NCBI GenBank assembly: GCA_043808015.1
Contig: JAZDFI010000015.1
Span: forward strand, 1 to 16,437
Reading direction: 5' to 3'
DNA from: Candidatus Aenigmatarchaeota archaeon
GTDB lineage: Archaea; Aenigmatarchaeota; Aenigmatarchaeia; QMZP01; QMZT01
DNA: 16,437 nucleotides
Under the pieces are notes generated by a model. The model searched no databases, had not been told where the DNA came from, and saw only the letters and a list, made by a program, of their open reading frames with translations. Both the position numbers and the translations under genes were made by a program. Positions 2,667-6,974 of the stretch are shown in pieces. Numbering within the stretch: the stretch's first letter is position 1; each line of letters opens with the position of its first letter.

Positions 2667-3444
2667 TCTGATTCAGCAAGCATTTACTTTTCTTTTATTT
2701 GCAGGTATCCAAATATGAAATAGAGAGAATGAGACTTAATTGTTACCAATTAAAAAGCATTGAAAACTTGACCAAAGATGGCAAATCCTTGCAACATATA
2801 TCAAATATCACAGGCATAAAAAAGACGACTATTTACTACCACACACGAAAACTCAAAGGAAAAAGCATACAGATGCCTCTCATAAGATTCAATTCAGATG
2901 AAAAATTGGGAGAAGCCGTCGGTATATTCACAGGCGACGGCAGTTTATATTTTGAGCCAGGAAGATATCACTATCAGGTTAGAGTGCATTTTGGTATAAA
3001 AAACGTGAACTATTTGAATCATGTTAAAGCTTTATTCGATGCGTCATTTGGTAAAAAATTTCTTATAAAAATGGACGGCCCTAGAAAATTTGTTTTACAG
3101 ATATATTCAAAAGAAATATTTGCTTTTTTCCATGACTTTCTCGATTTCAAAAACCAAGATAAATCAAAAAGTGTGAGTCTGAAAGAGAAATTTTTGAAAA
3201 ACGAGGTCTTTGCCAAAGGTTTTCTAAGAGGTTTGATCGACACGGATGGTACAATATCGAAAACCGAGAACGGCATAAGAATAGCTTTTTACACATCATC
3301 TTACAAACTAGCTCAACAGATATCGTTTTTATTGAACATGTTTGAAATAAAACATGGTATAACATCATCAAGAGAAGGTCAATATAATGTTTATATATTG
3401 AAAAAGGATAACAATAGAATCGTCAAACTACTAAAACCATTTAA
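2667..3444 (+). mobile_element. AT-rich insertion carrying the homing endonuclease-like gene
   Basis: Two sampled 60-nt lines give 28% and 33% GC, against 63% in a sampled ftsZ line. The AT-rich tract ends at the tRNA 5' end. No terminal repeats were seen. Confidence 0.55.
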
Positions 3445-3454
3445 GGGCCGGTAG
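2729..3454 (+). CDS. Free-standing double-motif LAGLIDADG endonuclease-like protein with N-terminal HTH
   Basis: Motifs LGEAVGIFTGDGSL and FLRGLIDTDGTI, both keeping the acidic catalytic residue. HTH-like GKSLQHISNITGIKKTTIYYH. ATG 2729 chosen; the ORF track starts at TTG 2699. The stop TAG at 3452-3454 lies inside the tRNA. Confidence 0.85.
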   Translation: MRLNCYQLKSIENLTKDGKSLQHISNITGIKKTTIYYHTRKLKGKSIQMPLIRFNSDEKLGEAVGIFTGDGSLYFEPGRYHYQVRVHFGIKNVNYLNHVKALFDASFGKKFLIKMDGPRKFVLQIYSKEIFAFFHDFLDFKNQDKSKSVSLKEKFLKNEVFAKGFLRGLIDTDGTISKTENGIRIAFYTSSYKLAQQISFLLNMFEIKHGITSSREGQYNVYILKKDNNRIVKLLKPFKGR

Positions 3455-3554
3455 ATCAGCGGTAGATCGCCACCTTGGCATGGTGGAGAAACCTTGTTTC
3501 TGCAGAAAAGAAACATGGTTCCATAAGCCTCGGGTTCAAATCCCGACCGGTCCA
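3445..3554 (+). tRNA. tRNA-Ala(GGC) with a 38-nt intron
   Basis: Acceptor stem GGGCCGG/CCGGTCC with the Ala identity pair G3:U70 and A73; D-arm GATC-AGCGGTA-GATC; anticodon arm CCACC-TTGGCAT-GGTGG; T-arm TCGGG-TTCAAAT-CCCGA. CCA is not encoded. Confidence 0.95.
3489..3526 (+). other. Archaeal tRNA intron at non-canonical position 45/46 (BHB motif)
   Basis: Central helix GTGG(3483-86)/CCAT(3521-24), 3-nt bulges AGA and AAG, intron helix AACC/GGTT plus TGTTTCT/AGAAACA. Cutting after the second bulge nucleotide on each side restores the normal variable loop AGGCC. Confidence 0.88.
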
Positions 3555-3565
3555 TTGCTTCTTCT

Positions 3566-4495
3566 CTATCCGCCATTGAATAATTTTGTGCTCAGGTATT
3601 TCTCCCCCCTGTCCGGAAATATCACCACTATCGTGCCTCCGCTTATTTTCTTCGCGACTTCGACCGTCGCGTACATCGCGGCCCCGCTGCTCATGCCCAC
3701 GAATATGCCTTCTTCTTTCACGATTCGCCGGGCCCATTCGAAGGCGACTTCGCTGTCGACCGTTATGTTCTCGTCGATTTCGAACGGCCTGTATATCGAC
3801 GGCACCATCGCTTCCTCCATGTTTTTCAGTCCCTGTATGTAATGTCCTTTGTGCGGATAGGCGCAGATTATTTTTATTTTTTTATTCTTCTCTTTCAGGC
3901 CCATGCCTACGCCCATTATCGTTCCCGACGTGCCGATGGCCGAAACCATGTAATCAATTTTGCCGCCGGTGTCGCGCCATATCTCCTCGGCAGTCGTCTT
4001 GTAATGAGCGATCTTGTTATACTCGTTCGAGAACTGGTCGGGCATGAAATATTTTTCAGGGTTCGCGCTCACGAGCTCCCTCGCTTTCCGTATGGCGCCG
4101 TCCGTGCCTTGGCTGGCCTCCGTCAAAGTTATTTTTGCGCCGAACGCCTGTATCATTTTCTGGCGTTCTATCGAGACCGCTGCGCTCATCACTATCTCGA
4201 CTTCGTATCCCTTGACCGCGCCTATCATCGCCAGGCCGATGCCCGTATTGCCTGACGTGGGCTCTATTATCGTTTTTCCGGGAACCAGCACGCCTTCGCT
4301 CTCCGCCTGCTCTATCATTTTCAAGGCGATGCGGTCCTTTATGCTGCCCGTGGGGTTGGTGCCCTCGAATTTCGCGTAAATGGTCACGTTCCTGTTCGGA
4401 TTCAGCCTGTTTATTTTCACAAGCGGCGTGTTGCCTATCGTATCCAGTATATTGTCGTAAGTCCTTTTCGCTCCGTCTTCAGCAGAGTCGTTCAC
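3566..4495 (-). CDS. cysK: PLP-dependent cysteine synthase (O-acetylserine sulfhydrylase, CysK/CysM family)
   Basis: IGNTPLV, NPTGSIKDR (PLP lysine), EPTSGNTGIG, DQFSN, GTSGT, IQGL, GMSSGAA, FPDRGEKYLST. The start is uncertain: GTG 4495 lacks a well-spaced SD. CysK versus CysM cannot be resolved here. Confidence 0.92.
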   Translation of the reverse strand: MNDSAEDGAKRTYDNILDTIGNTPLVKINRLNPNRNVTIYAKFEGTNPTGSIKDRIALKMIEQAESEGVLVPGKTIIEPTSGNTGIGLAMIGAVKGYEVEIVMSAAVSIERQKMIQAFGAKITLTEASQGTDGAIRKARELVSANPEKYFMPDQFSNEYNKIAHYKTTAEEIWRDTGGKIDYMVSAIGTSGTIMGVGMGLKEKNKKIKIICAYPHKGHYIQGLKNMEEAMVPSIYRPFEIDENITVDSEVAFEWARRIVKEEGIFVGMSSGAAMYATVEVAKKISGGTIVVIFPDRGEKYLSTKLFNGG

Positions 4496-4505
4496 CCTTT
4501 TTCAT
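4479..4505 (-). CDS. Out-of-frame micro-ORF MKKGERLC overlapping the cysK start
   Basis: AGGAGGT (4518-4512) sits 6 nt before ATG 4505. The ORF reads ATG AAA AAG GGT GAA CGA CTC TGC TGA, and cysK is in the +1 frame relative to it. Confidence 0.45.
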   Translation of the reverse strand: MKKGERLC

Positions 4506-4583
4506 GTTATGACCTCCTAAAATTTTTTAAATTTCCAAAAAAACCGGTGTAAAAAATCGGTGTAAAAGCCAGTGTTCAATTTA

Positions 4584-4655
4584 CTAACGACAACAGCAAG
4601 AACTAAAATTTCTGGCCAGCGTTCTCTTCTCGGTAATGCCATTCGCCGTCGTCAT
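4584..4655 (-). CDS. Putative Cys-rich leader peptide MTTANGITEKRTLARNFSSCCCR (proximal)
   Basis: Three consecutive Cys codons TGC TGT TGT, then CGT and a double stop TAG TAA. TTTTAAAG lies at -27..-20. There is an alternative in-frame ATG at 4661. It sits directly upstream of cysteine synthase. Confidence 0.7.
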   Translation of the reverse strand: MTTANGITEKRTLARNFSSCCCR

Positions 4656-4703
4656 GAGCATACTTGGAAACAAGCTTTAAAAGTGAAACTGCCTCTAGAA
4701 ACT

Positions 4704-4736
4704 AAAAAAACTAAGAATAAAACCTGTGTCCAGGTT
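4704..4736 (-). terminator. Hairpin plus U-tract after the distal leader ORF
   Basis: Minus strand AACCTG-GACA-CAGGTT followed by TTATTCTTAG and T7. Confidence 0.5.
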
Positions 4737-4747
4737 GCGCTAGGAAC

Positions 4748-4801
4748 TTAACAGCATGAGCAACCGGATTCTTTCTTCTTTGCGCTTTTCTTTTTGACCA
4801 T
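4748..4801 (-). CDS. Putative Cys-rich leader peptide MVKKKSAKKKESGCSCC (distal)
   Basis: Ends TGC TCA TGC TGT TAA. TATTTAA lies at -29..-23 from the ATG, matching the leaderless spacing seen for other genes in this window. Confidence 0.65.
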   Translation of the reverse strand: MVKKKSAKKKESGCSCC

Positions 4802-4837
4802 GAAAATTTATTCAGTTTCCGCCTTAAATACCACGCG

Positions 4838-4852
4838 GTTCGGAAAGGGAAC
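4838..4852. repeat. Palindromic motif GTTCGGAAAGGGAAC, copy 1
   Basis: 14/15 identical to 7806-7820; 7 nt upstream of the distal leader TATA box. Confidence 0.5.
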
Positions 4853-4853
4853 T

Positions 4854-6974
4854 TCACTGCACGGCCTTGTTAAAAAGTGAAAATAGAGGCGCTATCATTT
4901 CATTTAGCATCGCCAGGAACTGCTCGAAGAAGTTCTTCTCGCGGAACTCGATGGTCGCCGGCGTGACGTATCGGTTGCCCGCGACGTCGTAGCATACGAG
5001 TTCCATTGGATATGTGCCAGGCGCGAGCGCGAATTCGACCTGCGCCTTTCCAAACGCCTCTGCCAGCGTCTGCGTCTGCCCGGCTATCGCTATTGAAATG
5101 TTTTTGGCTTTCGAGTTGCGCACGTCGAGCTTCATAATCGCCTTGCCTTCGGCGTAGTCGGTATCATAGACGATGACCGGCTCATCGTAAACCTCGATGA
5201 CATGCGCCTCCGATATGTTCATACCAGCGACCGAAGCTTCGAATGTGACGGTCTTGGCTCCCTTTACAGTGAAGAACACCGGCAGCGATACGAAATATTT
5301 CGTCTTCAGCTGGAAGTTCGCGAAATTGTCGGCGCCATTGACGTTTATGTTCATGTGCACACTTTCCTCGCTTGAGCCGTGGTTAACAACGAATGCGGAA
5401 ACGTTTTTCTTCTCGCCGACTTTAAGGTACGCTGGCACGGCCACGTCGTCGAGCGTGACCTGCATCTGGCTTGTGACAGTGTATTTGAGCGACACGAGCT
5501 CGCCTTCCGAAAGGTAAACCACCACCTCGTTCTCGCCCAGTTCTTTCGGCTTGAACGTGAAGAAAGTCTGGAAATCGCCGTCGATGCTCCATTCCTCTTT
5601 CGCGTCGCCAGCTATAACGCCGACTTTCGCGGCTTTCGCCAGGTCCTTGACCGTGATGTAGACTCTCTGCTCGCCGCCCAGCTCGACCATGCTGGAAGCG
5701 ACATGCGCAGAAAGGCTGCGCGTCCCGCGCGGCGAGTATTGAGTGTTCACGAAAGCGTCCGTTGTGCGCAGCGCTAGCGAACGCGAGTTGAGAGTCAGCG
5801 GACATGTGAACAGCAAATTTCTGGGCAGGTCTTCGCTGATTTTAATTTTCCAGTAGACCTGCTCCCTGACGCCGGGCCTGAGGATGACGTTCTGCTGCTT
5901 GTCTATGACGTCGACGACGCCGTATTCGCCAGCGCACGGCTCCAGCACGATGCTGCCGACTATGAATTCCGTAGGCACGAGCGCGAGCGAAACGACGCCC
6001 TCGTCGCCGCGCCTGAAGTTCTGGCCGGATATTGTGAGGTTGTATTCATCCTCTTTTACGACGGGAGAATAAGTTATGGTGGATAAGACCACGTCGTCAG
6101 CGGCCCAGTTTATGCTGTTGACGCCGTAACCAGTGACTTCGACGTTGTTCTTGACCACGCTGTCGAGATGGCTGCCGAACTTTATGTGCGTCGCGTCCAT
6201 GTATCCGATTTCCAGCCACAGCGCATCGACGGGCACCCATTTGCCGAGATACACTTCCGAATACGCGTGGCGCTCCCATCCGCGGTCACCGTATGAATAG
6301 CCTGAAACGAATTTCGCGGGTATGCCCATTGAGCGGGCAAGGGCGATGAACAGCGTCGTGTACTCAGAGCATACGCCGCGTCGGCCGGCGAGAACGGAAA
6401 GCGCGTCGAGATTCCTGCCAGAATATGATAAATCGTAGTCGAGATGGTCGTGCACCCACATGGCCAGCTTCGCGACGCGCTCGAAATCGTCCTTCGAATC
6501 CTTAGTGATTTCAAGGGCGAGACTCTTTATGCTCGCGTCGCCTGACTGGATGTTTTGCGTGGGCTGCATATAGGCCTTGACGTCGTTCGGTATCGAATAC
6601 GACGAAGGCAGCGAAGTGAGATGGTTCGCCCTCGACTTGACGACGCCTTCGATGCTGTAAGAGAATCTGTTACCCGGACTTGCCTGCTCTATAATCCCGA
6701 TGTCAGTTCCTAGTTCGTTCCTGACGCGATTGACGTCCATGACGACGTCCTGTCTCTCGTCGTCCTGCGGGATGTTCATGCTGATGGTTACCTTGGTCGG
6801 CTGGCCGTCGGTTATGATGGTGCCGGACTGTGTGATATTGACTATCAATTCGTTGACGCTGGCCGGGTTCTTGAGGACGTTGTCCTCTATGCCGGCCGCC
6901 ATGGCGCTCTGGAAAAGCGAAACTGAAAGAATCGCAACCAGCGCAAAAAAAGCAAGGGGCTTGAGGCCTTTCAT
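4854..6974 (-). CDS. Secreted transglutaminase-like (Cys-His-Asp) protein with beta-rich C-terminal domains
   Basis: Signal peptide ending AMA; GVCSEYT (Cys), HAYSEVY (His) and WVPVD (Asp) in the transglutaminase-core pattern; 706 aa. Confidence 0.85.
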   Translation of the reverse strand: MKGLKPLAFFALVAILSVSLFQSAMAAGIEDNVLKNPASVNELIVNITQSGTIITDGQPTKVTISMNIPQDDERQDVVMDVNRVRNELGTDIGIIEQASPGNRFSYSIEGVVKSRANHLTSLPSSYSIPNDVKAYMQPTQNIQSGDASIKSLALEITKDSKDDFERVAKLAMWVHDHLDYDLSYSGRNLDALSVLAGRRGVCSEYTTLFIALARSMGIPAKFVSGYSYGDRGWERHAYSEVYLGKWVPVDALWLEIGYMDATHIKFGSHLDSVVKNNVEVTGYGVNSINWAADDVVLSTITYSPVVKEDEYNLTISGQNFRRGDEGVVSLALVPTEFIVGSIVLEPCAGEYGVVDVIDKQQNVILRPGVREQVYWKIKISEDLPRNLLFTCPLTLNSRSLALRTTDAFVNTQYSPRGTRSLSAHVASSMVELGGEQRVYITVKDLAKAAKVGVIAGDAKEEWSIDGDFQTFFTFKPKELGENEVVVYLSEGELVSLKYTVTSQMQVTLDDVAVPAYLKVGEKKNVSAFVVNHGSSEESVHMNINVNGADNFANFQLKTKYFVSLPVFFTVKGAKTVTFEASVAGMNISEAHVIEVYDEPVIVYDTDYAEGKAIMKLDVRNSKAKNISIAIAGQTQTLAEAFGKAQVEFALAPGTYPMELVCYDVAGNRYVTPATIEFREKNFFEQFLAMLNEMIAPLFSLFNKAVQ

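Follow-up and report, generated by a model that had tools for sequence, protein, structure and literature searches.

The cysteine synthase gene (cysK) of a Candidatus Aenigmatarchaeota archaeon is preceded by two very short open reading frames (ORFs), here called ORF A and ORF B, each of which ends in a cluster of Cys codons. We consider it likely that both are leader mini-genes, acting in cis, that sense the cell's supply of cysteine. They lie on a stretch of 16,437 nucleotides (nt), referred to below as ‘the window’, which is contig 15 (JAZDFI010000015.1) of a 934-kb genome in 39 contigs, 90.7% complete (assembly GCA_043808015.1; G000 in what follows). ORFs of this kind share a common anatomy, are strongly enriched in front of cysK, are conserved in several archaeal phyla and occur, wherever they were found, exclusively upstream of cysK or of the gene for the cysteine transfer RNA (tRNA-Cys).

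In the window, cysK occupies positions 3566..4495 of the minus strand, as do all the features described in this and the following sections unless stated otherwise. Its product belongs to the CysK/CysM subfamily, and matches Pfam PALP and NCBIfam TIGR01136 (cysKM; 377.8 bits against a cut-off of 344.15). The upstream neighbour, a transglutaminase-like gene, has its 3' end at 4854, and the 358-nt spacer between the two genes contains ORFs A and B, on the same strand as cysK. ORF A (MVKKKSAKKKESGCSCC; 17 codons, 4748..4801) opens at ATG 4801 and closes with TAA at 4750-4748, and three of its last four codons are Cys codons (4762-4760, 4756-4754 and 4753-4751). ORF B (MTTANGITEKRTLARNFSSCCCR; 23 codons, 4584..4655) runs from ATG 4655 to TAG 4586-4584, with a second in-frame stop, TAA, at 4583-4581; its peptide ends in SSCCCR, with the Cys run at 4598-4590, and a longer form is possible from ATG 4661 or TTG 4673. 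TATA-like boxes precede both: TATTTAAGG (4822..4830), 21-29 nt 5' of the ORF A start and identical in G003, another genome of the same genus, and TTTTAAAG (4675..4682), 20-27 nt 5' of the ORF B start and likewise kept in G003. Downstream of ORF A, a terminator scan reports a hairpin (4736-4721) with a U-rich tail that includes a T7 (4710-4704; 4701..4736 altogether). The stem carries a compensatory change in G003 (AACCTG/CAGGTT to AACCGG/CCGGTT), and the counts of the scan equal chance, with 1 hairpin seen and 0.9 expected. Archaeal termination needs no hairpin, and two T-runs between ORF B and the cysK ribosome-binding site, T6 (4556-4551) and T7 (4543-4537), together spanning 4537..4556, are candidate termination sites; their equivalents in G003 are T5 and T6. 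An earlier note, made from this DNA alone, had described the tandem mini-ORFs with three terminal Cys codons each, their TATA boxes at leaderless spacing and the U-tracts that follow them, and all of this stood when coordinates and translations were re-read on the minus strand.

The CysK proteins of the window and G003 are 96% identical, and the differences between their leaders are mostly synonymous or add Cys codons. ORF A differs by one synonymous change (TCA to TCG). ORF B differs by two synonymous changes and one Ala-to-Val substitution; in G003, moreover, an additional Cys codon stands in place of its stop, and a new stop comes after it. Two leaders in series were found only in these two genomes; counterparts of ORF B are present in other genera.

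A chance origin of such ORFs is contradicted by comparative counts. In the window's genome, 16 of 9409 ATG-started ORFs of 6-70 amino acids (aa) carry at least 3 Cys among their last 6 residues; 13 of them lie within long open frames and three outside, ORFs A and B included. The third is a 54-aa ORF (contig C5:15035-15199, minus strand) that ends in ...HGCCDCRP. A search of 371 genomes for CysK (the class-level set being the same as the phylum-level set) matched 79 at E-values up to 1e-30. Upstream DNA was fetched, 81 loci gave a CysK match, and the 76 with at least 150 nt upstream were analysed. A ‘strict leader’ was defined as a sense-strand Met-ORF of 8-60 aa with at least 3 Cys in its last 6 codons, located no more than 300 nt upstream. 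Ten of the 76 Aenigmatarchaeota loci have one (11 ORFs in 26,965 nt). At the genome-wide rate 0.22 would be expected; on the antisense strand there are 0. The enrichment over chance is about 50-fold. By the last-6-codon measure, Cys is the most frequent residue at these loci. When both strands of the 360 kb of fetched DNA are counted, such ORFs number 13, every one upstream of cysK. The ten leader loci represent about seven lineages, kinship among the genomes making the counts overstate the number of independent events. Besides the pairs in the window and G003, leaders occur in G017 (MPKKKAKRTAKRKKASSCCCCE), in G011 and G020 (...CSCSCCCCC and ...CSCSCACCC), in G065 and G064 (MIHCNCICCACCCLC) and in G032 (...ARAVSCCC). 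In the last two of the ten, G211 and G185, a polyCys ORF overlaps the cysK start. G313 also has a leader, ending in ...SCDCSCCCRCC, 83 nt 5' of an N-terminally extended CysK.

An unbiased scan for runs of at least 3 consecutive Cys codons gives the same picture in another way. Across 254 loci, a few duplicates included, 45 such runs occur on the sense strand versus 2 on the antisense strand. An in-frame stop follows 0-2 codons later in 34 of the 45, and upstream of 33 of these 34 there is a Met in the same frame. We therefore take the run to be the closing part of an ORF rather than a mere repeat.

The leaders are not confined to the phylum. Of 80 titled genome records whose CysK is close (70-96% identity), the titles assign 15 to archaea and 65 to bacteria. 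Leaders with at least 3 Cys are present in 4 of the 15 archaeal records, namely one each from Aenigmatarchaeota, Woesearchaeota (MKPNQCCCC), Nanoarchaeota and Thermoplasmatota (...MKMKLCCCC), and a second Nanoarchaeota record has a leader with 2 Cys. In the 65 bacterial records, no polyCys leader was found in front of cysK. In the order around G371, whose members are labelled Woesearchaeota or Nanoarchaeota, 301 genomes were searched and 53 had a CysK at E-values up to 1e-60. The best 30 of these 53 loci were fetched and, with 3 from unpublished genomes omitted and 1 too short, strict leaders were found in 19 of the remaining 26, many of them of the form M-x4-5-CCCC. The enrichment of Cys-ending ORFs before cysK homologues, and their recurrence at homologous loci, which the earlier note had named as the way to check its reading, are thus borne out in related and unrelated archaea alike.

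Leaders also stand near cysK in 6 of 72 metagenome loci scanned (L176, L187, L224, L234, L250 and L251), all with at least 100 nt upstream and without a taxon label. In L250 and L251, whose DNA is 43% G+C, an 8-bp GC-rich hairpin and U8, which together resemble a bacterial intrinsic terminator, come after the leader (MIHLLEKNIKMCCEACI); inside the hairpin loop is a 10-bp stretch complementary to the ORF's 5' part. These two loci may be of bacterial origin. CysK of the window's type is itself 70-82% identical to proteins of Bacteroidales, Dehalococcoidales, Patescibacteria, Firmicutes and several archaeal phyla, which hints at a wide horizontal spread of one CysK type.

The anatomy of the leaders is simple, and largely the same wherever they occur: TATA box, mini-ORF, terminal Cys run, stop and, at a fixed distance, a short sequence box. 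The TATA-like box, of the TTTAAATA or TTTATAAA type, lies some 24-33 nt 5' of the leader ATG, a spacing seen by eye in 17 of the 19 leaders of the order around G371. Such spacing points to transcripts that are leaderless or nearly so. In a few leaders the TATA box is about 10 nt further upstream and a short Shine-Dalgarno (SD) sequence is present instead. The peptides are 8-35 codons long and differ in sequence, and the part that they have in common is the terminal Cys run, often with Ser before it. Of all 5-mers in the 20 nt that follow the stop, CATTG is the most frequent; 15 of 34 non-redundant leaders have it, in every case at an offset of 6-9 nt, and two control windows lack it (0 in each; background expectation about 0.03 per window). 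Woesearchaeota-type loci have a longer box, (A)ATTCTTTCATTGTTTTAG. In the window, ORF B is followed 9 nt downstream of its stop by CACTGGC (4568..4574), one mismatch from CATTG(G/T). Inspected by eye, the CATTG box has no consistent complementarity to tRNA-Cys or to the Cys run, and its TTG does not consistently begin a second small ORF.

In six Woesearchaeota-type loci (L259, L262, L269, L270, L277 and L280), a tRNA-Cys gene with anticodon GCA lies between leader and cysK, making a compact unit of TATA box, polyCys leader, tRNA-Cys and cysK. Three of the six have the start of tRNA-Cys 23-30 nt downstream of the leader's stop codon. In L269 and L280, cysK begins 9-13 nt after tRNA-Cys, without an SD, which suggests that the 5' end of the cysK mRNA is made by tRNA processing. 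L259 and L262 have a perfect 8-bp A/U hairpin (ATAATCAT ... ATGATTAT) between the CATTG box and tRNA-Cys; it is kept in both, the changes falling only in or next to the loop. In six Aenigmatarchaeota loci (L040, L042, L044, L069, L070 and L079), tRNA-Cys(GCA) is the immediate 5' neighbour of cysK, shares its strand and is not accompanied by a polyCys leader; this is a third way in which the region 5' of cysK is linked to Cys in the window's phylum.

The linkage to cysK and tRNA-Cys, the conservation at the level of codons and the leaderless layout fit a sensor of charged tRNA-Cys. In the mechanism that we propose, the transcript of each mini-gene would start from a separate TATA box, carry no leader or almost none, and be translated from its 5'-terminal AUG. 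When charged tRNA-Cys is scarce, the ribosome would wait on the Cys codons at the end of the mini-ORF. Its position, parked on the Cys run or released at the stop, would then decide the fate of the transcript at the box 6-9 nt downstream, and so set the amount of RNA that reaches cysK or, in relatives, tRNA-Cys and cysK. The fixed distance between stop and box would place the box at the 3' edge of a ribosome that occupies the stop or the last Cys codons, so that position could decide whether the box is exposed. We infer translation of the mini-ORFs, this output step, and a regulatory sign in which low cysteine leads to more expression. As to the step itself, a ribosome on the Cys run might block a termination- or processing-prone state at the box and U-rich tract, which a released ribosome would permit; this we advance tentatively, as somewhat less than an even prospect. 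In some loci the first gene downstream of the leader is a tRNA, which suggests that the regulated step concerns the transcript (termination, pausing or processing) and does not lie solely in initiation at the cysK SD, and we prefer transcript-level attenuation, by termination or processing, over masking of the cysK ribosome-binding site. The earlier note had likewise proposed control of read-through into cysK, which these loci would favour only indirectly.

Several observations weigh against a sensor of this design. The leader RNAs fold no more stably than shuffled sequences (z +0.49 and +0.43), and no conserved alternative structure of the terminator/antiterminator kind could be established for them. 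Predicted accessibility of the cysK SD and start, calculated for 11 loci, is the same in free RNA and with a ribosome at the first Cys codon, at the last Cys codon or at the stop. Evidence that the beginning of the ORF pairs with the sequence after the stop is only marginal. T-runs after the box are absent in several loci, including those in which the tRNA comes directly next. Simple coupling models, such as polarity or a ribosome that pushes RNA polymerase, would predict the opposite sign. ORF A turned up only in the window's genus, and has no post-stop box. An A/T-rich, TATA-like stretch at 4519..4534, read from the sequence and indistinguishable from chance A/T richness, is a possible promoter of cysK's own; G017 has no such stretch between leader and cysK. 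One search of sequencing runs listed DNA runs with small shares only, and no RNA run. Finally, 66 of the 76 cysK loci of the phylum have no such leader. For the pairing of ORF start and post-stop sequence, a first shuffle test gave a weak mean z of -0.45; in a later test (n=34) the native value was -6.71 versus -5.73 kcal/mol in shuffles (p=0.02). Reversed controls gave p=0.12-0.25, and a cross-locus permutation gave p=0.035, which differences in GC content between loci may inflate. After these weak, then marginal, signals, a hairpin between the two regions was set aside as a candidate.

The rival that survives best concerns translation of cysK, and it is improbable in our judgment. As in mycobacteria, where masking of the SD has been demonstrated for the Ms5788A leader (10.1101/834739), the Cys tract or the post-stop region would pair with the cysK ribosome-binding site, and a stalled ribosome would free it. 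One result speaks for this: pairing of the post-stop region with the downstream spacer is stronger in native sequences (-9.12) than in shuffles (-7.36; p=0.009) or reversed controls (-7.73; p=0.02), and for 8 of 13 loci the best duplex reaches into the SD or start region. The signal may, nevertheless, come from pyrimidine tracts meeting purine-rich SDs, with which they pair trivially. Pairing of the Cys run itself with the SD region gives no signal (permutation p=0.66, reversed controls p=0.42, shuffles p=0.9), the post-stop region does not pair significantly with the SD window (p=0.13-0.19), and the predicted accessibility of the SD does not change in the stalled states. Where cysK follows tRNA-Cys by 9-13 nt, moreover, there is no SD to mask.

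The mini-ORFs might instead encode functional Cys-rich micropeptides, metal- or redox-active for example, whose expression together with cysK is incidental. The ORFs are real and have promoters, and some have Lys-rich N-termini (e.g. ORF A and the G017 leader). Yet only the terminal Cys run is kept in the peptides, many of which are M-x4-CCCC, a lack of conservation that argues against stable microproteins, which the earlier note had named as a possible refutation, and for a sensor at the level of codons. A position-locked RNA box outside the ORF, and the restriction of all occurrences found to the upstream regions of cysK or tRNA-Cys, argue in the same direction, as does G000, where the unrelated 54-aa ORF on contig C5 is the only intergenic ORF of this kind at other genes. 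We regard the micropeptide explanation as very unlikely. Slightly more so is a non-coding element, akin to a riboswitch or T-box, in which UGY repeats function at the RNA level and the reading frame is a by-product. The conserved primary sequence of the box 3' of the run, and the adjacent tRNA-Cys genes, would suit such an element. The terminal runs, on the other hand, are almost always in frame with an upstream Met and close to a stop, the ATG stands at leaderless distance from a TATA box, fold stability is ordinary, and Rfam 15 has no match within 4300-4900 at E-values up to 1. Chance ORFs, for which it can be said that short ORFs and T-runs are common in A/T-rich DNA and that terminator counts equal expectation, can hardly account for the size of the enrichment, its specificity for strand, frame and locus, and its recurrence in several phyla.

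Bacteria provide the textbook cases of leader-peptide attenuation. A 2005 study predicted polyCys leader peptides in front of cys operons of Actinobacteria (PMC1262725), and polycysteine leaderless small ORFs (sORFs) such as Ms5788A work in mycobacteria as translational attenuators (10.1101/834739). The archaeal leaders share with this class the leaderless mini-ORF, the 3' Cys run and the position directly upstream of cysteine-biosynthesis genes. Ms5788A is a cis sensor of charged tRNA-Cys that acts through ribosome stalling; for the archaeal leaders, this role is proposed from sequence. They differ from Ms5788A in their TATA-box promoters, in the CATTG box after the stop, and in showing none of the complementarity between Cys tract and SD that goes with the polyCys leaderless sORF in mycobacteria; and in several loci their first regulated gene would be tRNA-Cys, which points to control at the level of the transcript. 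In Rhodobacterales, the uORFC-8-2 motif (PMC8632094), also a proposed ribosome-mediated attenuator, is an upstream ORF with tandem Cys codons before cysS, a gene that supplies Cys-tRNA. Its Cys codons, as described there, lie inside a conserved stem that is followed by an intrinsic terminator with a U run, whereas the archaeal leaders have no established conserved stem and keep their Cys run at the extreme end of the ORF. The trp and his attenuators (10.1101/834739) are alike in clustering cognate codons in a short leader ORF, in placing the region after the leader stop so that ribosome position matters, and in having U-rich tracts downstream. Unlike these, the archaeal transcripts appear to be leaderless, and the four-region terminator/antiterminator architecture is not demonstrated in them. 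Measured against attenuators in general, the archaeal loci have a short 5' ORF on the same strand before an amino-acid supply gene, with cognate codons clustered beyond chance. Ribosome profiling of archaea has recorded a pause at Cys codons (PMC7261190).

A literature search, which did not extend to subscription journals, found neither leader-peptide attenuation nor polyCys upstream ORFs in archaea, although the supplementary tables of 10.1101/834739 might list non-mycobacterial examples. The archaeal leaders are filed here as what appears to be a bacterial sensing principle in another domain, with a box and operon layout of its own and without the SD pairing of mycobacteria. They would represent a codon-level amino-acid sensor that recurs across DPANN lineages and in one Thermoplasmatota record, and would mean that genome-reduced DPANN archaea regulate their cysteine supply in cis. 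They offer a testable model for how translation might signal to transcription or RNA processing in archaea, and their anatomy gives annotators a rule by which to find more of them.

A third mini-ORF overlaps the start of cysK. The SD, GGAGGT (4512..4517), lies 6 nt before ATG 4505, and SD-type 5-mers (GGTGA, GGAGG and related) are enriched 5' of gene starts in the window's genome. ATG 4505 does not open cysK. It opens ORF C (MKKGERLC and stop, 4479..4505), which has a Cys codon at 4484-4482 and stops at TGA 4481-4479. The only start codon in the cysK frame, GTG 4495, is 16 nt from the SD, and cysK is in the +1 frame of ORF C. ORF C is identical in G003, and in 16 loci of the phylum (L001, L002, L013, L037, L043, L046, L058, L059, L068, L071, L072, L074, L075, L081, L083 and L093) an ATG or GTG out of frame with cysK likewise opens a short ORF, with a strong SD in most and a weak or unclear one in L074. 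These cassettes contain G-[EGDN]-x-x-C, and cysK is always in the +1 frame. A rule-based count over 76 cysK loci (a number derived from the CysK matches) found a short Cys ORF in the frame needing +1 in 18, with Gly at -4 in 11, and in the frame needing -1 in 8, with Gly at -4 in 1. Among 727 control genes of G000, the corresponding numbers are 64 and 5 for +1, and 142 and 12 for -1. Before the Cys codon, 11 of the 16 loci have NUU (NUU-U), the window and G003 have CUC, two loci have CGG and one has UGG. In L068 and L072, whole polyCys ORFs occupy the frame requiring +1, overlapping an N-terminal extension of cysK. In L058, a TAG immediately precedes the site in the cysK frame and no start codon follows it, and in L081 that frame has no start codon at all.

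These features raise the possibility, which we regard as doubtful, that ribosomes sense cysteine in two layers. PolyCys leaders would form a widespread archaeal class of ribosome-mediated attenuators, with the CATTG box dedicated to them, that control tRNA-Cys and cysK transcripts. ORF C would add a second layer in the 16 loci, where production of CysK would depend entirely on ribosomes that start at the out-of-frame ATG (4505 in the window), stall at a Cys codon short of its charged tRNA (4484-4482) and shift into the +1 frame. Dual initiation at ATG and GTG, occlusion of the start site, and termination-reinitiation would each predict less CysK at low cysteine, and were set aside as readings of ORF C for this wrong sign; a +1 shift would give the right one. 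Telling against the frameshift, GTG in the cysK frame is kept in 12 of the 16 loci, the window included. The motif G-E-x-[LFV]-C may simply be the shadow, in another frame, of the N-terminus M-N-x-F-A of a GTG-started CysK, and in L048 an SD-led TTG gives M-K-F-A. Two closed frames, in metagenome-assembled genomes, could be errors.

ORF C resembles the +1 frameshifting of prfB/RF2 and antizyme in that a short zero-frame ORF closes soon after a putatively slow A-site codon, with the product gene in the +1 frame. In most loci a NUU-type codon would occupy the P site, GGTGA lies upstream as an SD-like element, and the slow step would report the end product. It is unlike prfB in that the slow codon would be a sense Cys codon and not a stop; the SD-like element is 4 nt from the P-site codon, a spacing typical of initiation; the P-site codon of the window is CUC; and a GTG start exists in the cysK frame of most loci. 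A 2021 review (PMC8211752) knows of just one -1 frameshift demonstrated for a cellular gene of an archaeon. If the reading were true, ORF C would be the site of a programmed frameshift set off by amino-acid starvation and the first case of +1 recoding in a cellular gene of archaea, and hungry-codon frameshifting would be a new kind of metabolic feedback by recoding.

Some cysK loci of the phylum carry a further 5' addition. In L041 (the locus of G313), L005, L006, L017 and L057, a module of about 145 aa with a DGHHR motif is fused to the N-terminus of CysK or precedes it. Pfam reports only PALP for the extended CysK of L041; judging by its motif, the module may be the ParB-like serine kinase of archaeal cysteine synthesis, an identity that we do not claim. 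Beyond the 3' end of cysK, the single match of the Rfam scan is an intron-bearing tRNA on the plus strand (3445-3554; RF00005, 55.5 bits), with anticodon GGC (Ala) by eye and an extra segment after the anticodon stem. ARAGORN misses intron-bearing tRNAs, this one and that of L257 among them. A LAGLIDADG-type ORF, also on the plus strand (2699-3454), ends right at the start of the window tRNA.

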